A stretch of 42,057 nucleotides of DNA from a virus. This document shows, piece by piece, positions 298-42,057 of the stretch (within the stretch, counting starts at the first letter, position 1; each line of letters starts with the position of its first letter). The DNA is taken from UHGV virus genome UHGV-0204900; one strand, written 5' to 3'. The notes beneath the pieces are model-generated. The model saw only the letters and a program-made list of their open reading frames with translations. It did no database searches and was not told the DNA's origin. Position numbers and translations under genes: made by a program.

Positions 298-753
298 ATG
301 AATTTTGATATCAACATTATCAGAGCTGAAATTGAAGATTGGGCGGTAGAACAAGGGCAAGAACATGTTGCCATTGAGATTAGCCGAGCTTACTTACGAT
401 TAGTGGTTAATCAAGAACATGGTCGATTATATGCCATTGAGGATCAAACGGGTAAGGCCGACTGGAAAGCAATCAATAATAACCGGCAACAGATATTCCG
501 CTGGTTAAGAGGTGATTCCCGTGCATCTCAAAGAAAGATTGCTGAGTTAATGCCAGCGATAGAAATAGCACTACCGGCTTCGAGACTGGCTAGAGTTCGT
601 GGAGACACCAAAAATTATTTAGCAACAGTGGCCATTCAGCGTTTTGCTGATGCTATGACAGAAATTTTATTAGAAGGTCGTGACATGTCACACCAAATAA
701 ACAATGTAGTACGTGCGTTAAATGAGATATCACGCCCGACCAGCGTGCATTAA
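298..753 (+). CDS. YdaT-like (CII-analogous) regulatory protein
   Basis: 151 aa. Blocks such as IFRWLRGDSRASQRKIAELMPAIEIALPASRLARV resemble the Rac prophage YdaT family. Sits immediately downstream of the cro-like gene. Confidence 0.65.
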   Translation: MNFDINIIRAEIEDWAVEQGQEHVAIEISRAYLRLVVNQEHGRLYAIEDQTGKADWKAINNNRQQIFRWLRGDSRASQRKIAELMPAIEIALPASRLARVRGDTKNYLATVAIQRFADAMTEILLEGRDMSHQINNVVRALNEISRPTSVH

Positions 754-3375: not shown

Positions 3376-4626
3376 GTGATTTTTAAGAATATAAATAACC
3401 CTAAGAGGGGTAGTGAAAATGAAAGAAGAGCCAGTTGGTATAATTATTATGCTGGTTTTTCTCATACATTTGTCAGAAATTTAATAAATGATCTGCATTT
3501 ATCAAAAGAATCAGTCATTTTAGATCCTTGGAATGGTTCTGGTGCAACTACATATGCTGCTAGTATTGAAGGTTACCAATCCATTGGAAGTGATTTGAAT
3601 CCACCAATGTATGTTATTGCTAAGTCTAAAATGGCAGATAAAAACGATGTAATAAATGCACTGGCTAAAATAAAAAAAATGAGAGTCAATGTATTCTCAT
3701 GTATTTTTGATTCAGATGATTATTTAAATAATTGGTTTGTTCATCAAACTGCTAGTTATATTAGATATATAGATTTTTTCATCTGTAAAAAGATGAATGT
3801 TGATATAAATACAAAGTTACATCTGCTTAGTAAAGTTGATTGTTTATTATATGTGGCATTATTTAATACTATTAGATTATTAATAAAATCATTTGTTTCT
3901 TCAAATCCAACATGGATAAAAAAGGCAAAGGGAGCTAATAATAAGATAAGAGTTGATAATAGATTTATTAAACAATCCATCATTAACTTACTTAATGAAA
4001 AATTAGATGTTGATGATTTTCCTTTAATTAATAAGGATGCTTTTTTCTTATCTGAAGATGTGAAAAATTTATCTCTTAAAGATAAATCTATAGATATTGT
4101 TATTACATCCCCACCTTATTGTACTCGAATTGATTATGGCATTGCCACTTCACCGGAATCAGCGGTATTATATGGTAATAATCCTATTCAGATAGAAGAA
4201 ATGCGTCGTAGATTAATGGGAAGAACTACAATTGATAAAACATTCTATGATGGAATATCTTTTAGTAGTACTACGGATGAATTTTTATCGTCTATATATG
4301 AGCATAAATCAAGGGCTTCAAACACCTATTACTACAAGAATTTTTATCAATATTTTTTAGATCTTAATTTATCATTAATTGAAATTAATCGAGTTCTTAA
4401 GAATGATGGTTATTTTGTGTGTGTTGTGCAAGATTCATATTATAAAGAAATTCATTGTGACTTATCTCAGATTATTACTGAATTACTTGATAGCAACGGA
4501 TTCAAATTACTACAAAAGAAAGAGTTTGAATCTACAGTTAATATGGCTAACCTAAATAATAAATCAAAGATTTATCGTGATAAAATGGTAGCTACCGAAT
4601 ATGTGTTAATCTTTTCGCGAGGATAG
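3376..4626 (+). CDS. DNA methyltransferase (N6-adenine or N4-cytosine; motif I DPWNGSGAT, motif IV SPPY)
   Basis: 416 aa with a FxGxG-type AdoMet motif and an SPPY catalytic motif. No in-frame ATG before motif I, so start is GTG at 3376 with a weak RBS (start uncertain). Very AT-rich codon usage shared with the next two genes. A 4-nt gap separates it from the downstream gene. Confidence 0.8.
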   Translation: MIFKNINNPKRGSENERRASWYNYYAGFSHTFVRNLINDLHLSKESVILDPWNGSGATTYAASIEGYQSIGSDLNPPMYVIAKSKMADKNDVINALAKIKKMRVNVFSCIFDSDDYLNNWFVHQTASYIRYIDFFICKKMNVDINTKLHLLSKVDCLLYVALFNTIRLLIKSFVSSNPTWIKKAKGANNKIRVDNRFIKQSIINLLNEKLDVDDFPLINKDAFFLSEDVKNLSLKDKSIDIVITSPPYCTRIDYGIATSPESAVLYGNNPIQIEEMRRRLMGRTTIDKTFYDGISFSSTTDEFLSSIYEHKSRASNTYYYKNFYQYFLDLNLSLIEINRVLKNDGYFVCVVQDSYYKEIHCDLSQIITELLDSNGFKLLQKKEFESTVNMANLNNKSKIYRDKMVATEYVLIFSRG

Positions 4627-4630
4627 TGGA

Positions 4631-5752
4631 ATGAGTACAGAAGTAATATTAACTGAAATAGAATCCAAAATAGAAAAAGTTCATACACAGAGCTTAGATT
4701 TATCTTTTAATGAACTTCTTAGTATGTATGAAAATGAAGAATTAGATATTAGTCCTGATTATCAACGCTTATTTAGATGGTCCGAAGGAGCAAGATCAAG
4801 GTTTATTGAATCTTTAATATTAGAGATGCCTGTACCTCCTATTTATGTAGTGGAGACAGACTCAGGTGCTTATCAGCTTATTGATGGATTACAGCGCTTT
4901 TCATCTTATTTACATTTAAGAGGAGAACTTGATGCTAAACATATGGGAGTAAATAAAGGTGATTTCTTAATTTTATCAGATTGTGACATAATTGATTCTA
5001 TCAATGGTATGACATTTAATGATTTACCTATGGCTTTAAAAATAAAGTTAAAACGTTCTTTTGTAAGAGTTGAAATAGTAAGAAAAGGAAGTGATAAAAA
5101 ATTCAAATATCATATGTTTAAGAGATTAAATACAGGTGGTGAAGCATTAACAGAACAACAGATTAGAAATTGTACGATAAGAATGTTAGATCCTAAGTTT
5201 AATGACTTTATAATAATGTTATCAGAAACAGATGATTATCTGAACTGTATAGCAAATTTGTCTGATTCTCAAAGATATGGATCTTATGATCAAGAACTTG
5301 TATTAAGATATTTTTCTTTAAAGAATAATAAAGATGGATTTAAACATGATGTTGCAGATTTCATGACTGAATATATGGAATCTGTAGCAGGAGAGACAGT
5401 GGATTTTAATTATGACGAAAATGAACAAAATTTTCTAAAGGTATTTAAATTATTTAATAAAGCTCATGGTGATAAAATATTCGGAAGATTGAATAGCCAG
5501 AATAATAAATTGCAATCTAATTTTGGAATATACCATTTTGAATCACTTTGTATGGGGATTCAGTGTGTTCTAGATAGAATAGATATAAATAATGAAGAGC
5601 ATATCAAAAAATTTTCTCAAGCAGTAATTTCTTTAAAAGGTAATGCCGATTTTAAAACAGAAACAACTGGAGGAGGAAAAAATTCTACTGGATTGTTAAA
5701 TAAACGAATAAAAATTGCGGAGGGATTCTTTTCGGAGGCTTTCAGTGACTAG
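4631..5752 (+). CDS. DUF262 (ParB/Srx-like, GmrSD N-terminal-type) domain protein
   Basis: 373 aa with the hallmark PDYQR...W motif and IDGLQRFSS (DGQQR-type) motif. GAGGA RBS 9 nt upstream. AT-rich. Confidence 0.85.
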   Translation: MSTEVILTEIESKIEKVHTQSLDLSFNELLSMYENEELDISPDYQRLFRWSEGARSRFIESLILEMPVPPIYVVETDSGAYQLIDGLQRFSSYLHLRGELDAKHMGVNKGDFLILSDCDIIDSINGMTFNDLPMALKIKLKRSFVRVEIVRKGSDKKFKYHMFKRLNTGGEALTEQQIRNCTIRMLDPKFNDFIIMLSETDDYLNCIANLSDSQRYGSYDQELVLRYFSLKNNKDGFKHDVADFMTEYMESVAGETVDFNYDENEQNFLKVFKLFNKAHGDKIFGRLNSQNNKLQSNFGIYHFESLCMGIQCVLDRIDINNEEHIKKFSQAVISLKGNADFKTETTGGGKNSTGLLNKRIKIAEGFFSEAFSD

Positions 5753-6437
5753 TGAGGAATTTTTAACACAGATAGAATTAGATAGGGCATGGAGAGAAGA
5801 AGAAATTCGAACTATGAATAATATCTTAACAGAGCTGAAGGATGATAATGATAAAAATAAATTAAGGCGGGCAATTATTTGTTTGCTCTATGCTCACATT
5901 GAAGGTTTTGTTAAATTTTCATTTGGTTTGTACATAGAATCAATTAATGGATTAAAGTTAAAATGTCAAGATGTTAAACCTATATTAATAGCTGCTGTTT
6001 ATCATAAGGATTTTAGTAAACTCACAGACCCTGATGCTAAAAGTAAATTATTCACTAAAAAAGCACAAGAAGATAAATATATTAGAAGAATTTGTTTGCA
6101 AGAAGAGTTTTTTGAAAGAATTAATGATGTTTTTAATTCTGAAATAAAAATAGATGACGGGTACATTAATACAGAAAATAATGTGGGTAGGGAAGTTCTT
6201 GAGAAGCTACTATATCAAGTGGGTTTATCTCATAAGTCTTTAGATAATACAATTGGACCATTATCTAGGTTATTAAATAAAAGAAATGATATTGCTCATG
6301 GAACAGATAAAAGTTCCATTAAAGCCGAACATTATGATGAATATTTCAAGTGTGCTTTAGGTATCATGAAAGAGCTTACAAGTACATTATTTTTAGCATA
6401 TAGTAAAAAGGATTACTTGAAGCAATCTATAGTTTAA
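5745..6437 (+). CDS. HEPN-domain protein (Rx4H motif RNDIAHG; MAE_28990/MAE_18760-like)
   Basis: About 230 aa. Conserved R-x4-H in LLNKRNDIAHGT near the C-terminus. Probable GTG start at 5745 with a GGAGG RBS 6 nt upstream, overlapping the DUF262 stop by 8 nt (GTGACTAG). The ORF track gives a TTG start at 5715. Confidence 0.7.
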   Translation: MTSEEFLTQIELDRAWREEEIRTMNNILTELKDDNDKNKLRRAIICLLYAHIEGFVKFSFGLYIESINGLKLKCQDVKPILIAAVYHKDFSKLTDPDAKSKLFTKKAQEDKYIRRICLQEEFFERINDVFNSEIKIDDGYINTENNVGREVLEKLLYQVGLSHKSLDNTIGPLSRLLNKRNDIAHGTDKSSIKAEHYDEYFKCALGIMKELTSTLFLAYSKKDYLKQSIV

Positions 6438-8461: not shown

Positions 8462-9508
8462 ATGAAAAGTACTGTGAATTTAAACAGTGTGAATTTAGTC
8501 AATGATGACTCACTCAGCTATATAAAAACACTTCCCGATAATTATATTGATTTAATCGCAACTGACCCGCCTTACTTTCAGGTGAAGTCTTGTAGTTGGG
8601 ATAATCAGTGGGAAAACGTAACATCATATTTATCTTGGCTTGATGAAATGCTTGCAGAATTTTGGCGGGTATTAAAGCCTAACGGTAGTCTTTACATTTT
8701 TTGCGGTTCTAAACTAGCGTCGGATACAGAATTACTCGTCCGTGAAAGATTTAATATTCTAAGTCACATTGTATGGGCTAAACCATCAGGGCCTTGGCGC
8801 AGGGCATGTAAAGCTGATTTACGCAGTTTTTTCCCAAGCACTGAAAGAATTTTATTTGCTGAGCATTATCAAAGCCCATACAAGGGCAAAAGTAGTACCT
8901 ATCTTCAGCAATGCAAAGAGCTTAAAGAAAACATATTTAAGCCTTTAATTGAGTATTTTAAATTTGCACGTGAAACATTAGGAATAACTGCAAAAGAAAT
9001 AAAGCAGGCAACAGGTAAGCAGATGGCTTCACACTGGTTTAGTTATAGCCAATGGCAACTACCTAGTGAGTCTGATTACAAAAAACTGCAGGAGTTGTTT
9101 CATCGTGTAGCAAGTGAAAAATTCAGTAGTAATCCTTTAAATCGTGATCATGCTGATTTGATAGAGATTCAGGCTTCTCTTAGTCGAGAGTACCAGGAGC
9201 TTGCTGAACAATATCAATTATTACGTCGTCCTTTTTCTGTCACCGTTGATGTTCCTTATACCGATGTGTGGACGTATCCACCTGTGCAATATTACGCAGG
9301 TAAACACCCTTGTGAAAAGCCAGCAGAGATGATGGAACACATTATTCGTTCAAGTAGTCGCGAAGGTGATCTAGTTGCTGATTTCTTTATGGGGTCGGGT
9401 GCAACACTAAAATCTGCATTAAAACTAAGTCGTCGAGTTCTTGGAGTTGAACTTGAGAAAGAACGATTTGAACAAACAAGAGAGGAAATAAATAACATGA
9501 AGTCATAA
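8462..9508 (+). CDS. DNA methyltransferase, beta-class (motif IV DPPY N-terminal, motif I FMGSGAT C-terminal); likely orphan anti-restriction MTase
   Basis: IATDPPYF precedes ADFFMGSGATLKSA, the circularly permuted order typical of phage ParB-less N6A/N4C MTases. Core GC content. Confidence 0.85.
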   Translation: MKSTVNLNSVNLVNDDSLSYIKTLPDNYIDLIATDPPYFQVKSCSWDNQWENVTSYLSWLDEMLAEFWRVLKPNGSLYIFCGSKLASDTELLVRERFNILSHIVWAKPSGPWRRACKADLRSFFPSTERILFAEHYQSPYKGKSSTYLQQCKELKENIFKPLIEYFKFARETLGITAKEIKQATGKQMASHWFSYSQWQLPSESDYKKLQELFHRVASEKFSSNPLNRDHADLIEIQASLSREYQELAEQYQLLRRPFSVTVDVPYTDVWTYPPVQYYAGKHPCEKPAEMMEHIIRSSSREGDLVADFFMGSGATLKSALKLSRRVLGVELEKERFEQTREEINNMKS

Positions 9509-12672: not shown

Positions 12673-14277
12673 ATGCCTATCCCATTCCCGTTTGATTTTA
12701 AAAATCCTGACTACCCGCAGGTGTTTGAATGGCGAATGGAACGATTAACACGAATTCGCCAAAATCCAGAATCTATACCAGCACTCAACGCTTATTACAA
12801 AGATAATCCAGCCCAATTTATTATTGATTGGGGAATGACGTATGACCCACGAAACCCTGAGCGAGGTTTACCTTCCTATATTCCATTTTTACTATTCCCT
12901 AGACAAGAGGAATGGATTGAGTGGTTTATAGAACGTTGGAAAGGGCAAGAACCTGGTATCACAGAAAAGACGCGTGATATGGGTATGAGTTGGCTAACTG
13001 TCGGCTTATCTTGCACAGTATGTAATTTCAATCGTGGCATTAGTGTTGGTATAGGCAGTCGTAAAGAAGAGTATGTCGATAAAATTGGGGTACCTAAATC
13101 ACTGTTAGAGAAAGCCCGTATCTTTATGTCTTATCTGCCGGCTGAATTTCGTTTTGGTTGGAATAGAAACAAAGACGCACCACACATGAGAATAAAATTT
13201 CCTCATACTGACTCAATCATATCGGGTGAGTGTGGTGATGGTATTGGGCGAGGGGATCGCGTAAGTTTTTATATTGTTGATGAGTCCGCTTTCCTCGAAC
13301 GGCCATCTCTTATTGACGCTTCTTTATCAGCCACAACTAACTGCAGACAAGATATTTCAACGCCAAATGGAAATGCTAATAGCTTCGCTATCCGCAGACA
13401 TAGCGGAAAAATACCAGTATTTACATTCCACTGGAGAGAAGATCCAAGGAAAGACCAAGCATGGTACGACAAGCAGGTTGAAGTTTTAGATCCCGTTACA
13501 GTCGCTCAAGAAATAGATATAGATTACAACGCATCCGTTGAAGGGGTGATTATTCCTTCTGCATGGATACAGTCTGCAATAGACGCACATATCAAGTTGG
13601 GAATTGAACCAACAGGTAAGCGCCTTGGTGCTCTTGATGTGGCTGACGAAGGTATAGATAAAAATGCCTTTGTATCGGGTAAAGGAATATTGGTAGATGC
13701 TTGTGAAGAGTGGAGTGGAAAAGGTGCTGATATCTACCAAACCGTGGTTAAGGCAATCAATTTAGCCAGTGATTATGGTTGTAGTGAGGTTCTATATGAT
13801 GCTGATGGCATTGGTGCCGGTTGTCGTGGTGATTCAAGACAAGTCAATGAAGAACGGAAGTTAGCTGGTTTAAATCCTGTTACCTTTTCTGCTTACAAAG
13901 GAAGTTCTGGTGTACTAAATCCGGATAAGGTTTTAATGAAAGATGCCAGCGGTAGAAATATTACGAATAAGGACTTTTTCCAAAACTTTAAATCTCAATC
14001 TTGGTGGCATTTGCGGACATTGTTTTTAAATACCCATAGAGCTGTTAATGGTATGAAATATGATCCTGATGAGATTATTTCGTTATCTTCAAAGATGTCA
14101 TCTTTATCGAGATTAACTTCCGAACTCTGCCAGCCAACGTACACAAAAAACTCAGCAGGTAAAATCGTCGTTGATAAAAAACCTAACGGTGCTAAGTCTC
14201 CAAACTGTGCTGATGGCTTAGTCATTCTTAAATCTCCTGAGAAAAGAAACGGTAGTTTCTTCACAACTAAGAGGTAA
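12673..14277 (+). CDS. terminase large subunit
   Basis: 534 aa. Walker-B-like [13 protein letters not shown] motif, C-terminal nuclease-like acidic residues. Follows terS. Confidence 0.85.
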
Positions 14278-32257: not shown

Positions 32258-33286
32258 TTATACTTTTTTTAACAAATTCACTACTATTTTTTTCATAGGT
32301 AATTCATAGTATTTATAAATAAATATACTACCTAAAATACTTATTGTTAAAATAGAAAGTAACATATAAAAATCACTGCCAAAAAATATTCTATTCTCGA
32401 TAGAAAATCTAATGATTAATTGGTGAATCATATACAGTGAAAAACTCGATTCGCCCAATAGAACTAGTGTTTTATGGGATAAAACTTTTGTAATAAATCC
32501 ATTGGAGTATGATAGGGATATTATTAATACAGACATAGGGATTATGTAATAAATGTCAAAGCGATACGCTATATTAACCATGTAAGAATAATATATAAAT
32601 ATTAAAAATAAAGAAATAGACAATATTTGAAATATTATAACTTGATATGTAGGAATATTAAGATTTAACTTATTGAACCTTAGTCTAAAAATTAAAACAC
32701 CGATAATAAAGTCAGGGAGTCTCAATATTGGTGATATGTATATGTATGCATGAATGGCTTTCTCGCTAATATTTATTTCTGATAATAGTATTTTTAAAAT
32801 AAGTATGAATATAGTTACTTTTATAAGTGTATTTGAACTTCTAGTGATAAGAAAAGGAAAAAGGAAGTAAAAGAATAATTCAACAGAAATACTCCATGAC
32901 GGAGCGTTGAGTGAAAAATAATAACTTGCTTTAGGTATTAAAGCCTGTAAAAGAAAAATGTTTGATAATATTTCTTTTACAGATTCATTTTGATATAAAA
33001 ATAATAATGTAAATAATAAAGTTAAAAGATGAAGTGGGTATATTCTAGCAATCCGTGCTGTATAAAAATCGAATTTATTTTTCTCACCATCTAATAATTT
33101 TTCTTGATAAGAATAAGACAATACAAAACCAGATAAAATAAAAAATAAAGTAACACCAATAAACCCTTCTTTTACATATATAAAATCAAACGGTGTATTT
33201 TTAAAGAAGTCTAAATGTGAAAATAAAACAAATATAGCCGCAAAAAATCTTATAGAAGTTAATGGTAGAATATGGCTTTTATTCAC
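32258..33286 (-). CDS. membrane acyltransferase, Acyltransferase_3 / OafA-like (candidate O-antigen acetylase, lysogenic conversion)
   Basis: 342 aa multi-TM protein. The N-terminus ILPLTSIRFFAAIFVLFSHL matches the acyltransferase-3 family. GTG start. Very AT-rich. Minus strand, between the fibre gene and att. Confidence 0.8.
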   Translation of the reverse strand: MNKSHILPLTSIRFFAAIFVLFSHLDFFKNTPFDFIYVKEGFIGVTLFFILSGFVLSYSYQEKLLDGEKNKFDFYTARIARIYPLHLLTLLFTLLFLYQNESVKEILSNIFLLQALIPKASYYFSLNAPSWSISVELFFYFLFPFLITRSSNTLIKVTIFILILKILLSEINISEKAIHAYIYISPILRLPDFIIGVLIFRLRFNKLNLNIPTYQVIIFQILSISLFLIFIYYSYMVNIAYRFDIYYIIPMSVLIISLSYSNGFITKVLSHKTLVLLGESSFSLYMIHQLIIRFSIENRIFFGSDFYMLLSILTISILGSIFIYKYYELPMKKIVVNLLKKV

Positions 33287-33301
33287 GACAAACCTTATGA
33301 A

Positions 33302-33638
33302 TAGATTGGTTGTTATTATTGCCTCATTCTATCATATTTGCGCATAATCACTAATCCTCTATGGCATTCATACAATTTATTTTTAGTCTAATTTTTGGTC
33401 ATTTTATTGTGTTCAAAAAATTCTTCCAACTTCTCAAACAAATCCCTCGCCACAGCCTCCGTCATATACGTCCTCATTGGCTCCCGTCTAACATCTTTCA
33501 TTTTAAACGTGCTCTCATCAAACATTGGATCAGAAAAGATAATATCCATAAACAGATAGCCATAGGGTTATCTACAGATAAACGGGCCTCTTCTAACTGA
33601 GCAATATATTCAGCATTATTGGTTTCAAGTTTAATCAT
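33302..33638 (-). pseudogene. frameshift-disrupted small ORF (MIKLETNNAEYIAQLEEARLS... / ...MRTYMTEAVARDLFEKLEEFF)
   Basis: Two consecutive minus-strand reading frames (46 aa and 53 aa) would join into an approx 84-aa product with a single indel near 33555. The annotated plus-strand ORF 33361-33600 is probably its antisense artefact. Confidence 0.3.
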
Positions 33639-33823
33639 GGCACCACCTATTTAACTGTGTTTTTATACAGTAATTTATATAGGGTAATGGGTAGGATAGC
33701 AAGTTTAAAATTGCAAATTTATGCATGTGGTAATACAGAGATAAGTGAGGAATTTTTAGTGATAATCCATTGTAGTTTTACCCCAGTTTTACCCCTATTT
33801 TACCCCTCGTAAATTTCAGGCAT

Positions 33824-33853
33824 AAAAAAACCAACCGTAAGAGGTTGGTTTTT
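33824..33853. terminator. bidirectional intrinsic terminator downstream of the tRNA-Pro 3' fragment
   Basis: A7 run, then AACCAACC GTAAGA GGTTGGTT, then T5. Lies just 3' (on the minus strand) of the CCA end of the partial tRNA. Confidence 0.65.
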
Positions 33854-33864
33854 CTAAAGAATTT

Positions 33865-33911
33865 TGGTCGGCATGATAGGATTTGAACCTACGACCCCCG
33901 ACACCCCATGA
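33865..33911 (-). other. attP core: 3' 47 nt of a tRNA-Pro gene (T-arm GGTTCAAATCC, acceptor stem, CCA)
   Basis: Reverse complement CATGGGGTGTCGGGGGTCGTAGGTTCAAATCCTATCATGCCGACCA closely resembles the 3' portion of enterobacterial tRNA-Pro (proK-type), but no 5' half is present. Typical of phage attachment sites that reconstitute a target tRNA. Confidence 0.7.
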
Positions 33912-34425
33912 AACCGACTTTAATTTGTCTAACACTTTGATTATAAATATAAATAATACATTTGCATGTAATTACACACAGTGCTAGATATACAAAATAT
34001 GCATTATAAGAATCAATGGGTTAAGGTGAGTTTTACCACTATATTTATACCTGTTAGCTCAGGTTTGAGCTAACAGGTTTCGTAGGTAGAATATAGCTAA
34101 ACTTAACGATCTAAGTGAAAAGCGGACATTGTATTCGCAAGATAATATGAAATCATTGAAGATTAATGATTTTTCCCTATTTAAATTAGGTAGTACTAAT
34201 TGTTGCTAATATTATTAGAAATTTCACCTAATCAGACTGATTAACAAAAAATATACGATATCAAATAATTAAATTAATTTTTTGGTATATTATATTAATT
34301 CGTTAAAACACAGTAATCCGCTTTTTCACAGAAATTAAACTACCATTTTACTGTGTTTGTATATTGCTTGATTTTTAAGCATGATAATAATAGCTGTGTA
34401 ATGAAACTCGTCTAAGGGAGCAGTT

Positions 34426-34710
34426 ATGAAAAATCCAAGTATTGATAAGCTTCAGAAACAGATAAAAGAAGTGGAACATGCAACAGTAGCGCTGGATGGT
34501 AGTTATAATGTCAATTATGATGCGAATGATCTAGCTAGTATTGAAAATGCAATTCAGGAGGCATGCAGTTTAGTTGATGAACGAGCTTCACAGTACCAAA
34601 CAAATCCTCTCGTCATACCCATAATAGAGCGGGTGAAAGAAAATCTGCGAGAACAGATACTCAATGATGCTGAGCAACAAAGAAATGGGGTGAAGAAAGA
34701 TGGCTATTGA
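34426..34710 (+). CDS. hypothetical small protein (first gene of AT-rich cassette)
   Basis: 94 aa with an AGGGAG RBS. Overlaps the downstream gene by 11 nt. Confidence 0.55.
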   Translation: MKNPSIDKLQKQIKEVEHATVALDGSYNVNYDANDLASIENAIQEACSLVDERASQYQTNPLVIPIIERVKENLREQILNDAEQQRNGVKKDGY

Positions 34711-35599
34711 TATTTTTCAGTCACTGAAAAATGCAGTATTCGATTTACAGCGTGCTGATCTTCAGAACTATCATCAGCCTCTTAAACAGCTAGCTCGTCT
34801 ACTGAAATCGGATGAATTAATCAATATTAATAACTCATTAATACAGGGTGTTAATATTGATGACTTTCTAGCTTCAAGCTACGCCACAGAATCAAGCATG
34901 GCGGGATCTGCAACGCTTCGTTGGCCTGATGAACCATTAGAAATTCTCGGTATCAAGTTGCTTTTAATTGAAAAAATGGCTCGGGATGAAAATTTTACCT
35001 TTAATTTCTGCCATAAATTTTTTTATGATAGAAAGGTAATTGAATCAATAAGGAAATTTACTTCATCCTTCCTCGTTACTTTTATACGTGATTATCAGCT
35101 ATATGTTCAGAATCAGTCAGAACTTAAGCCCAAGATAATACAAAATATCTCTCGTAAGATATTTATTGTTCATGGACACGATTCTGCAACACTTCATGCA
35201 GTGGCTCGTTTTATAGGTAAGATTGGCTTGGAAGAAATTATTCTTTCTGAACGGCCAGATGGTTCGAGAACGATAATTGAAAAATTTGAAGAGGAATCTG
35301 GTGACGCTAGTTTTGCTATCGTACTGATGACGCCTGATGATAATGGAAATGCCGTTGCATCGGAAAACCTAAAGCTTCGCGCTCGTCAGAACGTTCTTTA
35401 TGAACTGGGCTATTTTACTGGCAAGCTAGGGCGGGGGAAAGTTATGGTGCTGAAAAAGGGTGATATAGAAATACCCTCAGATCTGGCAGGTGTCCTATAT
35501 ACGGAACTTGATGAACATAATGGCTGGAAACGAAAACTTATAAGCGAACTGGATTATGCTGGAGTTCCATTCGATAAAGCTAAAGCTCTCATTGCCTAA
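34700..35599 (+). CDS. protein with C-terminal TIR-like nucleotide-binding domain (COG4271 / Cap12-PycTIR-type) and unknown N-terminal domain
   Basis: The C-terminal 150 aa KIFIVHGHDSATLHAVARFIGKIGLEEIILSERPDGSRTIIEKFEE...FAIVLMTPDD...RARQNVLYELGYFTGKLGRGKVMVL...PSDLAGVLY matches the conserved pattern of the predicted nucleotide-binding TIR-like family. N-terminal 150 aa are unassigned. Confidence 0.7.
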   Translation: MAIDIFQSLKNAVFDLQRADLQNYHQPLKQLARLLKSDELININNSLIQGVNIDDFLASSYATESSMAGSATLRWPDEPLEILGIKLLLIEKMARDENFTFNFCHKFFYDRKVIESIRKFTSSFLVTFIRDYQLYVQNQSELKPKIIQNISRKIFIVHGHDSATLHAVARFIGKIGLEEIILSERPDGSRTIIEKFEEESGDASFAIVLMTPDDNGNAVASENLKLRARQNVLYELGYFTGKLGRGKVMVLKKGDIEIPSDLAGVLYTELDEHNGWKRKLISELDYAGVPFDKAKALIA

Positions 35600-35618
35600 A
35601 ACTATGCTAAGTTAAATT

Positions 35619-35641
35619 AGGTCGCAAAGCGACCTTTTTTG
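35619..35641 (+). terminator. intrinsic terminator closing the TIR-like cassette
   Basis: AGGTCGC AAA GCGACCT followed by TTTTTT. Confidence 0.7.
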
Positions 35642-35772
35642 CTGATAGTTTGGCTACCCTTAATTTATTAATTCCTAGCATCTGAAATATCCACTTTGGG
35701 CACAGAATAACCTGTCAATTAAAATTGACCCTGTATCATACCCATATTAGGCCAAATCTGAGCTAATAAAAC

Positions 35773-36948
35773 TCAAGCAATTTCACAATGTGGCACTTCA
35801 ACCCATTGTACATGGTTTTCTGTATAAATCTTGGTTGACTCCGCATCACTGTGAGCCATTCGAGCTTGTGGATCAAAACCACGTTGTTTAAACATAAAGG
35901 CCGCCAATGCTCTTATTTCATGAAAAGTAGGTCTTTCATCTAAAGATAAATGACTGGCAACACCTACTTGATCGCGTAACGCTGAAAATGCACGACTAAG
36001 GTAATCAGGTGCAACTTGTGTTGGATGATTAACTTCTTTACTTACCTTATTTGGGATGCGAGTAGGTAATCTATGCACAATATAAGGGCTTGCCACATTG
36101 TCACGACTATTATCAATGATTTCTTTTAATGCCTTTCCTATGGGAATAGCAACGTGAGACGCTTCTTTGTATTGTACTTTCTGCCTATGGATATAGATCA
36201 TTCCATATATTCCATTTTTAGGCTCCTCATACCAAACACACCCACATATTCCTTCTTTAGGTGCTTTGATATTGTATTTTATGCGTGACACTTCGAGCCT
36301 TGCTTGCGTTGTCTGTAATGCGAGATCCATTGCTGTTCTTAACCAAGGCTCTGCGGATGCTCGAATTTTAAGAAAGTCATCATAAGATAATCTTCTACGT
36401 TTTTTACCATCGACTCTTTTCATTTTCTTACGTTCTGCTGGGTTATCGAACATAAGAGATTCATCTATCGCATAACTGAAAATTTTCTTTAAAAAACCTA
36501 CTTTTCGATTTTGTACATTGGCAGAAGCTTCAGCATGGTATTCATTAATAAATCCATTAACGTGTTCCAAAGATATTTCATTTGATGGAATATCCTTAAA
36601 AAAGGATTTCACTCTTTCTAGGTCGTTAGTCCAGTCATTCAACGTGCTTTTAGATGGTTGTTCATCATTGATGATCCGAGAAAACAATTTATCTAAATGC
36701 TCAGAGAAGGGAAGGGCTTCACCATATTGCCCTCCCGAGTCAATAATTAATGAGTTAACAGAAACACATTTTTCTGGTCGCATAATATTGTTGTATTCTC
36801 TGGCTATTGCGATAGCTTTTGCTTTATCTGCACCAATACATTTGCGAATACCGTTAGTTAGCGTTAAACGATATTGTTTTTTAGATGAATCGTAATATAG
36901 GAAGTCAGGCAAATGCCTAAATTCCTTTCTTCTTGGTCTACTGGCCAT
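35773..36948 (-). CDS. int: tyrosine integrase
   Basis: 391 aa. C-terminal catalytic signature HEIRALAAFMF...(H-x-x-R) and KIYTENH (catalytic Tyr region). Adjacent to the att core and excisionase. Confidence 0.9.
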   Translation of the reverse strand: MASRPRRKEFRHLPDFLYYDSSKKQYRLTLTNGIRKCIGADKAKAIAIAREYNNIMRPEKCVSVNSLIIDSGGQYGEALPFSEHLDKLFSRIINDEQPSKSTLNDWTNDLERVKSFFKDIPSNEISLEHVNGFINEYHAEASANVQNRKVGFLKKIFSYAIDESLMFDNPAERKKMKRVDGKKRRRLSYDDFLKIRASAEPWLRTAMDLALQTTQARLEVSRIKYNIKAPKEGICGCVWYEEPKNGIYGMIYIHRQKVQYKEASHVAIPIGKALKEIIDNSRDNVASPYIVHRLPTRIPNKVSKEVNHPTQVAPDYLSRAFSALRDQVGVASHLSLDERPTFHEIRALAAFMFKQRGFDPQARMAHSDAESTKIYTENHVQWVEVPHCEIA

Positions 36949-38002: not shown

Positions 38003-38503
38003 TTAACGAACCATTAATGATCGGTCACCAACTTCTAAGTGAGCACCAGGTATTTCAATTCCGTTTTCAATCGCTTCTTTGATGCCTTTTTTATCAGGTG
38101 CAGTGATGGTTTGAACATCAACCAACTCATCCGGCAACAAAGCCTCATTGTCAATAATGACTCGAACAACACCAGCTCTAGCAGTGAATGTATTTTTTGT
38201 TGTTTTTAATTTATCTAATCCTGAAGCTAATAAGCAGTTAAGAGCATATTTCTTTAGGTTTTTAGCTTGGTTTTCGAATGATTTTTTACGATCAGATAAA
38301 CGTTTAGATTCCTCATCAAGTGTTTTAGCTTGACCTTCGATATTACGAACGTGGTGCATAATCGCATCTAATTTGTCACCTAACTCGCCCTCGATACCTT
38401 CCAGCGTATCTGCGATATCTTCAGGAGAGAATTCTCCTGTTTCAACGAGTTGTTGTAATTTTTCGTAATTGGTCGCCAGTGCAATAGCGGTAGTTTTGGT
38501 CAT
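38003..38503 (-). CDS. Gp157-like protein (Sipho_Gp157 family; recombination-module partner)
   Basis: 166 aa from the start at 38503, behind the box variant AAGAGGCAATCTAATG. Coiled-coil N-terminus. Immediately downstream of the SSAP gene, the usual Gp157 position. Confidence 0.55.
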   Translation of the reverse strand: MTKTTAIALATNYEKLQQLVETGEFSPEDIADTLEGIEGELGDKLDAIMHHVRNIEGQAKTLDEESKRLSDRKKSFENQAKNLKKYALNCLLASGLDKLKTTKNTFTARAGVVRVIIDNEALLPDELVDVQTITAPDKKGIKEAIENGIEIPGAHLEVGDRSLMVR

Positions 38504-40479
38504 TAGATTGCCTCTTCTTTCTGTTTCAGTTGGTCTAAACACTCTTTTTCGATTTGGTTTAATCGACGTAAACGGCCGGATAAATATTTCTCGTAATCGT
38601 TGTCACGACGTTCTTGTGCTGATTTAATATGTGCAGAAATTTCGCGCGTTAATGTAGATGCAATGCCTCGCAATTCATTCTCAGTAACAGCACTACGCAT
38701 AACTTCCGTATGTTTAGTAAATTTCTCGTCTAATTCTTTGCGAATACGCGTGATATCTTCAGCTTTTTCACTCGCGTTTTTAATTTCAAATTCAAGTTTA
38801 TTACTTGCTAAGTATTCAGGGTTATCGTGCATTCCCATAAAGACATCAGAGCTAAAGCCAAGCATTGATAGGGCTTTTTTGATGGCATCAGTTAGTGATT
38901 TTTTAATAGCTTCAGGGTCTGATTTCATTCCCCTAGTTGTCATATATCTGTAAGGGGTAGCTCCATAACTTTCAAATTCAGCTTTTTTACCCTTTTCGGT
39001 TATGTACCAGAATTTAATTTTGATAGAGTGATTTTCTTCATACTTTAGAGAACCATCACCATCGCGTAGAAAGCGAACACCAATTTGTTTGTTATTTTCG
39101 TCAAATACTCGTTCGGTCATTGGGTTTCCGGGTACAAGCTTTTCTTCGATAACTTCGTAACTCCATCCTTCACCGATAGGGCCAAATATTTCAGTAGCAC
39201 GCATAATCATGTAATTGCTGTTTATGCTAGTTCCTGCAAACCCTACACCTTCTAATGGCTTGGTAAATCGTGGGTCTGTTCGTTGCACGCGTTTCCAGAT
39301 ATGTAGATTATTGGAATCACCTGCGTTAAGAACTTCATCAAGCACACTAGCTCGTTGCTCAAAATTATCGTGTTGCACTGATGGTGTCTCAGACTCTTTA
39401 GGTTCTTCGGGTTCTTCAGTTTGTTCGAACACTGGAGAAACCTCTGTTTTTGGGGGTTCTTCTTGTTTCTTACGTGAACGCTTAGGCTTGGTTTCTTTCT
39501 CAACTGTATTTTCTTTGGATACTAAAGAAGCATTATCTGTTTGAATTAACTTAGTTGTAATTTCTTCTTTTTTAGTGTCGTTAGGTTTGCTAATCCCCAA
39601 ATGGAGATCAATCAATTCTTTCCGTGCATTAGGGTTATCTAATAACTCAGGCTGTTTTTTACTTTCAGCGATTAACGCGAAAATCTTTTCACGAGGTATA
39701 TCTAAAATGCCAGCTGTTGTACGTAAATCCATTGACCAGCGTTTCCATGCTTTGTTGTCATCATCTATCAGCTCTTTGGCTTTTTTTACTTGGGATGCAA
39801 GAACATTGTTAGGATCAAAGTCATCTAACAGTGCTAAGGCGATTTCAGTATCTATGGTTGAATAGTTACGCTTGATAGAAGATATCTCTTCTTGTTGTTG
39901 CTCTGGTTCTTCTGTTAGCCAGCTTTCACCTAGTGATTTAGCTTCTTCAACGGTGACATCTTCATTAGCAAACTCATAGATAGCCTGTGCTATTTCCATC
40001 GTTTGCTCAGCATCCATCAAAGATAATTTTGTTATTTCAGCAAGGCCTGTGGCGATATTACGAATTTTGGGGTCTTCTTTGCCTGCAAGGTATTTCAGAG
40101 CAATTGAGAATTCATTGTTAGTTATTTGAGTCTTGCCAAATAGTAATAGACTGGCTATACGAGGTTTTGTGGCTAGCTTTTTAAACTCTCTATATTCGAT
40201 AGGTTTCCATTGAGTACCGTCATACTCATTTTCAACAGCAAATTTTTCATCGAAAGCATCTAAAGTAGGGCATGCAGAACCGTCAAGATGTTCGCTAATT
40301 AACGGCTCATCGGTATTAAAGTTATCCATTGCTTCTGGATATGCTTCAGATAATTTTACTACGGCAGTCGCTGTTGCAAGTTTTGCATTAGCGGTGTTTA
40401 ACGCTATTGCTAACGGTACAGCACCGTTGTTTGTACGAGCCTCGGTCGTAGGCTCAAATACACAGATAAAAGTTTTCAT
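38503..40479 (-). CDS. single-strand annealing protein, Rad52/Sak-like C-terminal domain fused to a large N-terminal extension
   Basis: 658 aa. The C-terminal 250 aa contain Rad52-type blocks GFAGTSINSNYMIMRATEIFGPIGEGW...GMKSDPEAIKKSLTDAIKKALSMLGF. The N-terminal 330 aa are unassigned, followed by a Glu/Lys/Pro-rich acidic linker. Start behind the conserved box. Confidence 0.65.
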   Translation of the reverse strand: MKTFICVFEPTTEARTNNGAVPLAIALNTANAKLATATAVVKLSEAYPEAMDNFNTDEPLISEHLDGSACPTLDAFDEKFAVENEYDGTQWKPIEYREFKKLATKPRIASLLLFGKTQITNNEFSIALKYLAGKEDPKIRNIATGLAEITKLSLMDAEQTMEIAQAIYEFANEDVTVEEAKSLGESWLTEEPEQQQEEISSIKRNYSTIDTEIALALLDDFDPNNVLASQVKKAKELIDDDNKAWKRWSMDLRTTAGILDIPREKIFALIAESKKQPELLDNPNARKELIDLHLGISKPNDTKKEEITTKLIQTDNASLVSKENTVEKETKPKRSRKKQEEPPKTEVSPVFEQTEEPEEPKESETPSVQHDNFEQRASVLDEVLNAGDSNNLHIWKRVQRTDPRFTKPLEGVGFAGTSINSNYMIMRATEIFGPIGEGWSYEVIEEKLVPGNPMTERVFDENNKQIGVRFLRDGDGSLKYEENHSIKIKFWYITEKGKKAEFESYGATPYRYMTTRGMKSDPEAIKKSLTDAIKKALSMLGFSSDVFMGMHDNPEYLASNKLEFEIKNASEKAEDITRIRKELDEKFTKHTEVMRSAVTENELRGIASTLTREISAHIKSAQERRDNDYEKYLSGRLRRLNQIEKECLDQLKQKEEAI

Positions 40480-40963: not shown

Positions 40964-41101
40964 ACGTCTGTAACTTATTGCTCGTCTTTCCGAGCCGTCA
41001 TGGTCATATCTTTGTAGCTTTGGTCTGAAATATTCCCTAGTGCTGAATAAGAAGATCTGAACACTTACCTAAACACTTGCTGTGTTGTTTCGAATTAATG
41101 C

Positions 41102-41146
41102 AATATTAGCATTGCTATTTTATCTGTCAATAGCATTGCTAATATT
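41102..41146. promoter_or_regulatory. left operator region OL (two approx 21-bp operators) with pL (-35 TTGACA at 41125-41130, -10 TAATAT at 41103-41108, minus strand)
   Basis: Operator consensus AATATTAGCA-T-TGCTAATATT is a 10-bp inverted repeat around a central T. Copies are centred at 41112 and 41136. The minus-strand hexamers TTGACA and TAATAT are separated by a 16-nt spacer. Confidence 0.6.
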
Positions 41147-41152
41147 TTAGGT

Positions 41153-41201: not shown

Positions 41202-41957
41202 TTATGCAAAATCAATCATTCTAATAGGGAGTGATTTTATTACTTTTCCAATAATTCGAAGATCATACATTTCTGATTCTTCAATATAAAACGTTTCATA
41301 AGCAGGATTATCCGATTTAACAGCCAGTTTTCTACCTTTAACTCGTTGTAATCTTTTTATAAATAATGAGTTTTCGAAACTAAAAATATAAACACCATCA
41401 CCATCAAAAAACTCATTGTGGGTGTCAACAAAAACAACATCTCGAGGGTTAATAGCAGGGGACATACTGTCGCCACTAATGTTAATTATTTCAATTCCTT
41501 TTAAGCTTTTACGACCAAATAACTCAAAAACTTTCTCCGGCGAAAACTCAATAGATTTTATGGTGTCAGGGAAATCGTTATTTATAAAGCCACCGGGACC
41601 TGCTTTTGCATATACATCCATTAGTTTTAATGTTGTATGTTCATTTTGAGTGGACGGCATTGGTTGTTTTGTTTCTTCTTCTTTTCTTGTTTTTCTAACG
41701 TAGTCTAATAAAATTTTTAGCTCTGGGTTAATATCTTCCGGATCAACCCTCAATAATGATGCAAACTTTAGAATAGTATCTGTATTTAAAGCTGTTCTAC
41801 CGTTCAGATACTGACTTACGGCACCTTGAGTTGCAAACCCCATAATATCTGCAGCTTTTTCTTGAGTTAAGCCCAGAGATTCTCTTTTGGATTCCCAAAT
41901 ATTTCGTAAGTTCTGAGCTGCAATTTTGTCTGATTCTGAAATTTTTCTATTCATCAT
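41202..41957 (-). CDS. cI: CI-like repressor (HTH_XRE plus S24 LexA-like autopeptidase)
   Basis: HTH LGLTQEKAADIMGFATQGAVSQYLNG in the N-terminal half. Ser-Lys dyad motifs GDSMSP and FIKRL in the C-terminal half. Divergent from cro across a three-operator region. Confidence 0.9.
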   Translation of the reverse strand: MMNRKISESDKIAAQNLRNIWESKRESLGLTQEKAADIMGFATQGAVSQYLNGRTALNTDTILKFASLLRVDPEDINPELKILLDYVRKTRKEEETKQPMPSTQNEHTTLKLMDVYAKAGPGGFINNDFPDTIKSIEFSPEKVFELFGRKSLKGIEIINISGDSMSPAINPRDVVFVDTHNEFFDGDGVYIFSFENSLFIKRLQRVKGRKLAVKSDNPAYETFYIEESEMYDLRIIGKVIKSLPIRMIDFA

Positions 41958-41961
41958 TATA

Positions 41962-42030
41962 TTTTATTTGTATTGCTAATATTTTTCCAATAGCATTGCT
42001 ATTGATTTATTAAATTAGCATTGCTAATAT
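41962..42030. promoter_or_regulatory. right operator region OR (three operators centred 41972, 41995, 42020) overlapping pR (-35 TTGATT 42001-42006, -10 TAATAT 42025-42030)
   Basis: The copy at 42010-42030 is AAATTAGCATTGCTAATATT, 18/20 to the palindrome. Centre spacing is 23 and 25 bp. The Cro RBS AGGAG follows at 42045-42049. Confidence 0.6.
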
Positions 42031-42057
42031 TCTGTTGTTAAATAACAGGAGAAAAAC

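Follow-up and report, generated by a model that had tools for sequence, protein, structure and literature searches.

A paired or fused YuaX-TIR module beside the integrase of a Proteus-type temperate phage, a predicted abortive-infection system with a close relative on the F plasmid

TIR-domain NADases serve as effectors in CBASS, Pycsar, SpbK and several other bacterial defence systems. SpbK, encoded by the mobile element ICEBs1 of Bacillus, is a TIR NADase activated by a phage portal protein which clusters its TIR domains (PMC12847820), while the Thoeris TIR protein generates a signal destined for a separate effector (10.64898/2025.12.03.692087). Here we describe a two-gene cassette of the viral genome UHGV-0204900 (42,057 nt; this whole stretch is referred to as the window, and coordinates are positions within it), which encodes a 94-amino-acid (aa) protein of the YuaX family and a 299-aa TIR protein, and which adjoins the integrase of a temperate, Proteus-type phage. 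On balance, and with considerable reservation, we regard this cassette as a self-contained, prophage-borne abortive-infection module directed against phages or other mobile elements, in which a sensor would control an NAD+-depleting TIR domain. To our knowledge, no function has been published for the architecture combining YuaX with a helical-domain sensor. What this work adds is that YuaX is obligately paired with, or fused to, the TIR protein, that the front end formed by YuaX and the helical N-terminal domain is portable across different effectors, and that the cassette occupies a defence hotspot.

The initial annotation recognised a TIR-like domain of the Cap12/PycTIR type in the C-terminal half of the 299-aa protein, and all seven peptide blocks which it quoted were found in the translation. 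A Pfam profile search bore this out: residues 153-271 matched PF10137 (CAP12-PCTIR_TIR) with E=6.3e-37 and a score of 126.7 bits (gathering threshold 24.7), and the match covered positions 1-118 of the 119 positions of the profile. The AlphaFold model (predicted local distance difference test, pLDDT, 80) comprises a helical N-terminal domain (residues 1-138, pLDDT above 90; hereafter the N-domain), a disordered linker (residues 141-149) and a TIR fold. The best match of this model among solved structures was the Cap12 TIR domain, which supports the proposed fold. When a profile of 36 homologues was compared with solved structures, only Cap12 (9lmq, 7un8) and PycTIR (8jsj) were matched, and the block around the invariant residue Glu235 aligned with the Cap12 motif. 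The protein has the TIR (flavodoxin-like) fold and the conserved Glu motif of PF10137. From its family membership, the domain is predicted to be a NADase.

Cap12 and PycTIR are placed in the same PF10137 subfamily, provide the best sequence and fold matches among solved proteins, and share the conserved catalytic-Glu motif. However, the cassette differs from Cap12 (the TIR-STING protein of CBASS) in containing no CD-NTase, STING or SAVED domain and in having an all-helical N-domain, and from PycTIR (Pycsar) in containing neither the pyrimidine cyclase PycC nor a cyclic nucleotide (cNMP)-binding domain. The 299-aa protein is not a Cap12, because the scores of the NCBIfam Cap12 equivalogs (NF050171, 47.2 bits; NF050172, 38.7 bits) are far below the cut-off of 450. 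Among the PADLOC models, PycTIR matched the TIR part only (E=6.8e-11), spbK did not match the protein, and five of five hidden Markov models (HMMs) of PDC-S35 matched it with E values from 2.6e-66 to 4.3e-42; the PDC-S35 HMMs also match the fused form described below. In the PADLOC naming the “S” presumably denotes a single-gene, unvalidated candidate, whereas the protein of the window has an obligate second gene, yuaX, or is fused to its product.

No cyclase or ligand-binding domain is present here; activation must come from the part composed of the helical N-domain and YuaX. Among characterised systems, SpbK is the nearest in its logic: it likewise combines an N-terminal domain with a TIR NADase, requires no partner for signalling and brings about abortive infection, but it has a TIR domain of another subfamily, a different N-terminal domain and only a single gene. 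Thoeris resembles the cassette in being a TIR-based two-gene operon. In the window, however, the TIR protein is paired with YuaX, a helical protein of 94 aa which is fused to it in many relatives, and no counterpart of the ThsA-type effector (SIR2-SLOG, Macro-TM) is conserved beside pairs of this type.

Because all 25 homologues of the 94-aa protein (one of them 99% identical) carry the precomputed domain PF27363 “YuaX”, named after a gene of the F plasmid, the protein can be assigned to this family by homology. Domain and profile searches detected no helix-turn-helix (HTH), ribbon-helix-helix, AbrB or known antitoxin domain in this protein; weak matches to Myosin_tail, Radical_SAM_2 and Cas12k were rejected as coiled-coil or composition noise.

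YuaX and the TIR gene constitute one functional unit, the parts of which are obligately paired or fused. A YuaX homologue was present directly upstream, on the same strand, in each of 39 diverse genome loci encoding a full-length TIR protein, as well as in all nine testable viral contigs, and in most of the 39 genome loci the start of the TIR gene overlaps the end of the YuaX gene by 1-11 nt. Loci which share the TIR domain alone have different N-termini and are devoid of YuaX. In three alphaproteobacterial loci the pair is replaced by a single open reading frame (ORF) of about 405 aa. When one of these fused proteins served as the query, more than 100 clusters of proteins about 404 aa long were retrieved, which are natural YuaX-N-domain-TIR fusions (found e.g. 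in Bradyrhizobium, Bosea, Reyranella and Asticcacaulis). In the model of a fused homologue (pLDDT 86), YuaX forms three helices and is joined by a short linker of low confidence to the helical N-domain, which precedes the TIR domain. The mean pairwise identity within 70 aligned fusions decreased from 73% in the TIR domain to 57% in the N-domain and 44% in YuaX.

A close relative of the pair resides on the F plasmid (NC_002483; yuaX at 41216-41506, TIR gene at 41496-42395). Its products (WP_000538310 and WP_000963206, designated in RefSeq “YuaX family protein” and “TIR domain-containing protein”) consist of 96 and 299 aa, are encoded with the same 11-nt overlap, and are about 64-68% (YuaX) and about 76% (TIR protein) identical to those of the window. 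Unlike this plasmid-borne copy, that of the window is prophage cargo located between att and int, and it is preceded by a different leader. The F pair is convergent with, and separated by 50 bp from, the gene of a 741-aa KAP P-loop NTPase beside pifC, which we take to be the T7-exclusion gene pifA. This arrangement (F 41216-45760) is kept in all ten enterobacterial plasmid loci examined and in Erwinia; at other loci the KAP NTPase is outside the 25 commonest neighbour families. A functional dependence on PifA was rejected, since the adjacency is limited to F-like plasmids and Erwinia.

The N-domain was initially described as novel. It gave no Pfam, PHROG, PDB-sequence or fold match, and a search of viral folds likewise produced no significant match; in this sense the description holds. 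The domain is not unique to the window, however, as an exhaustive search with the N-domain alone returned 164 cluster representatives. Invariant residues of the domain include D15, Q17, Q22, W75, P76, F128 and R130. Most of the 164 proteins have a length of about 300 aa (N-domain plus TIR) or about 400 aa (fusions). In others the same domain precedes a different C-terminus: TIR_2, DUF4145, a type II restriction endonuclease (REase)-like domain, or regions resembling PDC-S05 and PDC-M14B. The N-domain proteins with C-termini other than TIR comprise P0302 (locus L182, 4001-5482), P0403 (locus L179, 2055-3065), P0339 and P0365. The effector is thus exchanged behind a common front end. The TIR_2 and DUF4145 variants are likewise immediately preceded by yuaX, and the DUF4145 form retains the 11-nt overlap; next to the two most distant N-domain variants YuaX was not detected. 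One TIR_2 variant (P0285), of a type rare in the family, possesses an SpbK-like TIR domain which matches the PADLOC spbK model.

It is conceivable, although we advance this only tentatively, that YuaX and the helical N-domain constitute a portable two-part infection sensor, which may drive several killing domains (the PF10137 TIR, the SpbK-like TIR_2, DUF4145 and possibly the REase-like nuclease). According to this speculative extension, the version encoded by F would be a second abortive-infection system beside PifA, and the fast-evolving YuaX might bind a phage protein directly, thereby releasing the assembly of TIR domains.

The genomic surroundings of the pair were analysed in a sample of 149 genes flanking 38 diverse loci. 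No Pfam family was present in more than 3 of these 149 genes, i.e. there is no conserved third gene. In agreement with the initial annotation, no cyclase, SAVED or SIR2 partner was found in the two-gene cassette or among the 25 commonest Pfam families of the flanking genes. The homologues sit among defence and mobile-element genes, as had been anticipated, the recurrent neighbours being Gabija/OLD-type ATPases, TPR-S/MAP3K_TRAF_bd, WYL, SLATT/DUF4231/TIR_2 and ResIII proteins, integrases and resolvases. The pair directly adjoins Gabija/OLD, SLATT, TPR-S or CTD10/MC6 genes at several of its locations outside the window. On enterobacterial plasmids the neighbours include PifA/PifC, VapBC, AAA_13, DUF4145, DUF3800, RES and a second PF10137-TIR protein accompanied by DUF4238. 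The latter is a distinct protein of 367 aa followed by a DUF4238 protein of 376 aa (locus positions 4544-6807 in L084, L085 and L089), and these two may form another TIR-based two-gene system.

The initial annotation placed the cassette in an integrase-proximal hotspot of accessory phage genes (morons). This agrees well with the content of the same slot in sibling prophages, which was examined 0-4 kb downstream of int in 80 IMG/VR prophages with an integrase 69-99% identical to that of the window. Only one of the 80, a prophage of the same phage type, carries the YuaX-TIR cassette. The 150 ORFs of this hypervariable slot between int and att fall into 79 clusters, and many ORFs lack annotation. 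Diverse defence genes occur here: dGTPase, AbiL, a 2TM/SLATT effector, a nuclease associated with prokaryotic Argonaute (pAgo), PD-T4-7, PD-T4-2 and NsnA, as well as PARIS AriA, ApeA, PDC-S08, PDC-S58, GmrSD_N and a colicin-E5 RNase domain.

Full-length relatives (47-88% identity) were identified in Enterobacterales, Pseudomonas, Halomonas, Methylobacterium, Sinorhizobium and other lineages, the nearest bacterial copies being those of Proteus mirabilis and Providencia. A protein search covering 72,556 plasmids found full-length copies on 920 of them (620 for Klebsiella and 373 for Escherichia). The pair is present in 317 of 5,426 complete Escherichia coli genomes, and 319 of its 337 places there are plasmid-borne. 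Among 2.9 million viral contigs there were 10 full-length copies, and 50,697 deposited phage genomes yielded four protein matches, confined to the TIR part and each covering at most half of the protein; these deposited phages contained no DNA nearly identical to the cassette or to the structural region. The initial claim of novelty has to be restricted accordingly: the family is widespread and already catalogued (PDC-S35, Pfam YuaX, the F plasmid).

DNA homology with the copy in an island of Providencia rettgeri (82%) spans only 34114-35623, which indicates that the module moves as a whole, from the leader through both genes to the terminator. In Providencia the pair is a component of an integrative island, where it is located beside a DUF559 endonuclease gene and CTD10/MC6 conflict genes. 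In P. mirabilis GCA_015721895 the cassette is retained, together with an integrase and a few small genes, in a remnant of approx. 4.7 kb at tRNA-Pro.

The two genes of the cassette and their 11-nt overlap were confirmed from the ORF calls, and the features of the region are compiled in Table 1. The proposed location between the att core and the integrase proved correct, as did the terminator, for which both the hairpin and the T run were recognised. The att core claim holds because the segment corresponds to the 3' 47 nt of tRNA-Pro(GGG): 46 of 47 nt are identical to the tRNA gene of P. mirabilis (one mismatch), including the last 34 nt, and the BLAST alignment with the P. mirabilis locus stops inside the tRNA-Pro of that locus. 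No intact tRNA was found in a scan of the window, and the sole Rfam match within 33200-35800, a sub-threshold small RNA with E=0.3, was rejected. A phage arm beside the att core (33418-33864, approx. 447 bp) is 84-94% identical to P. mirabilis DNA downstream of tRNA-Pro, and two copies of this arm bracket the P. mirabilis remnant (locus coordinates 9002-9451 and 13743-14178).

Table 1. Features of the YuaX-TIR cassette and of the associated phage regions in the window
Feature	Position	Strand	Remarks
att core, 3' 47 nt of tRNA-Pro(GGG)	33865..33911	-	BLAST against the P. mirabilis locus and direct comparison
Leader travelling with the cassette	34114..34425	+	AT-rich; contains candidate promoters
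Lone CI operator half-site TGCTAATATT	34204..34213	+	exact match
Best sigma-70 consensus match, TTAACA-17-AATAAT	34241..34269	+	10/12 positions; consensus match only
Leader block TTGCTT ... TGaTAATAA	34356..34393	+	alternative promoter candidate; common to the window, P. mirabilis and P. rettgeri
Shine-Dalgarno sequence AAGGGAG	34414..34420	+	5 nt 5' of the ATG of the small gene; read from the sequence
yuaX-family gene	34426..34710	+	ORF, 94 aa; acidic product, isoelectric point 4.8
Gene of the 299-aa protein	34700..35599	+	ORF; start inside the end of the yuaX-family gene
N-terminal all-helical domain, residues 1-138	34700..35113	+	putative sensor/regulatory domain
Cap12/PycTIR-type TIR domain, residues 153-299	35156..35599	+	invariant Glu235 in the YELGYF block
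Intrinsic terminator	35619..35641	+	hairpin AGGTCGCAAAGCGACCT followed by TTTTTT; 7-bp stem, 5 G-C pairs
Tyrosine integrase gene	35773..36948	-	Pfam Phage_int_SAM_1 and Phage_integrase; convergent with the cassette
CI-like repressor gene	41202..41957	-	HTH_3 and Peptidase_S24; operators at 41097-41150 and 41970-42035

The description of the cassette as AT-rich applies to its leader but not to its genes: the intergenic stretch 33912-34425 (514 bp) has a GC content of 27.4%, whereas that of the coding region (38.2%) is close to the value for the whole window (39.2%). Promoter-like sites in the cassette region were not enriched over shuffled sequences. For the promoter initially placed at 34350-34390 the outcome was mixed, as the sigma-70 consensus scan gave no match there, but the overlapping leader block listed in Table 1 is conserved in the Providencia copy. 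The Shine-Dalgarno sequence is also kept in that copy, as TAAGGGA.

The half-site of the CI operator reported in the leader is a genuine exact copy of TGCTAATATT, which occurs five times in the window (0.23 expected), and it is a lone half-site, as initially stated, its palindromic partner being missing. The four other copies (41102-41146 and 41974-42031) lie inside the operators, 15-bp palindromes A(T/A)TAGCA-N-TGCTA(A/T)T, two of which are placed on each side of the CI-like repressor gene. The left half of the leader site, CTAATTG, does not fit the operator, and sequence comparison revealed that the half-site is not conserved in the Providencia copy. Control by CI through this unpaired, non-conserved half-site was therefore judged weak.

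The observations presented above are compatible with the following mechanism. In the lysogen, the cassette would be transcribed from its own leader, with coupled production of YuaX and the 299-aa protein, and these two would assemble into a single complex. Sensing and regulation would fall to YuaX together with the helical N-domain, which would keep the TIR domain at the C-terminus inactive. A cue from the infection, in all likelihood a phage protein, might lift this inhibition or cluster the TIR domains, which would then hydrolyse NAD+ via Glu235 and stop the infected cell. The initial proposal of a compact, standalone sensor-effector or abortive-infection module is thus supported by the TIR fold, the absence of partner genes and the defence context, its function being a prediction.

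Several points weigh against this interpretation. The arrangement of the domains relative to each other is uncertain in both structural models (predicted template modelling scores, pTM, of 0.48 and 0.52), and the promoter is a candidate that is not established, the best agreement with the consensus being 10/12. Some of the ORFs downstream of int in the related prophages represent host flank (e.g. 5'-nucleotidase, DUF1706), while the association with defence islands was judged from gene lists, without a statistical test of enrichment. Moreover, a search of full-text literature found no functional study of the YuaX-TIR family. The pair is not treated in two broad papers on TIR proteins and defence discovery.

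The main rival explanation, which we consider unlikely but by no means negligible, is that the pair is a toxin-antitoxin addiction module, in which YuaX would be a labile antitoxin counteracting a constitutively toxic TIR NADase. Such a module would stabilise the plasmid, prophage or island carrying it, and defence would be at most a side effect. The gene order, with a small acidic upstream product and an overlap with the larger putative toxin gene, is what one would expect of such a module; the pair is also very common on conjugative and large plasmids, where it is found beside VapBC and ccdAB-type modules, and its persistence with the integrase in the 4.7-kb P. mirabilis remnant points in the same direction. 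However, YuaX lacks the DNA-binding or known antitoxin domain expected of a type II system, and its covalent fusion to the TIR protein in more than 100 clusters is difficult to reconcile with an antitoxin which is differentially degraded. The additional helical N-domain and the swapping of effectors are, in turn, typical of sensor-effector immunity proteins. The toxin-antitoxin and sensor models nevertheless overlap, because fused toxin-antitoxin sensors (CapRel) exist.

Two further explanations are less likely than the toxin-antitoxin one. The TIR protein might produce a signal, like ThsB of Thoeris, or be gated by a ligand, like Cap12 and PycTIR, and so require a host partner encoded elsewhere. 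Although its TIR domain belongs to the family used by CBASS and Pycsar, and some neighbourhoods hold SLATT or other TIR genes, we find this improbable: the neighbourhood shows no conserved cyclase, SLOG, SIR2, Macro or further effector gene (any family accounts for at most 3 of the 149 neighbours), the Cap12 equivalogs score only 47 and 39 bits where the cut-off is 450, the protein outside its TIR domain is helical rather than of a STING, SAVED or cNMP-binding fold, and the two genes travel together from host to host. Alternatively, the cassette might benefit the phage itself, e.g. as a CI-controlled tuner of NAD+ or nucleotides, or as an anti-defence enzyme which destroys immune nucleotides of the host. 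The lone CI half-site and the resemblance of the fold to nucleotide-processing enzymes could be interpreted in this way. This idea is very improbable, given that most copies reside on plasmids or in chromosomal islands, where this phage and its repressor are absent, that the half-site is unpaired and not conserved in Providencia, and that full-length copies are so scarce in viral contigs, the matches in deposited phages being limited to half of the protein or less.

A positive result for the abortive-infection module would matter beyond this phage, because the family is common on plasmids, in E. coli and on F. The hypothesis can be tested directly on the F plasmid. If it is true, clinical plasmids would be found to carry a further defence system deserving a name, F would offer a tractable model of a two-part sensor gating a TIR enzyme, and the phage-exclusion phenotypes ascribed to F would merit a second look.

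This phage carries at least two cargo cassettes of the defence type, the YuaX-TIR cassette being one of them. A second low-GC cassette (3376-6437, plus strand, about 28-30% GC), which looks like another defence-type moron, is placed in the early region; its products are a 416-aa N6/N4 DNA methylase, a 373-aa GmrSD_N/DUF262 protein and a 240-aa RiboL-PSP HEPN protein. Between the tail-fibre gene and att there is an Acyl_transf_3 gene (32258-33286, minus strand, 342 aa, about 27% GC), which is likely to be an O-antigen-modifying lysogenic-conversion gene. A YdaT-family gene (298-753, plus strand) was found near the immunity region, and an early-region ORF of 658 aa (38503-40479, minus strand), with no Pfam match, adjoins a gene of the Gp157 family.

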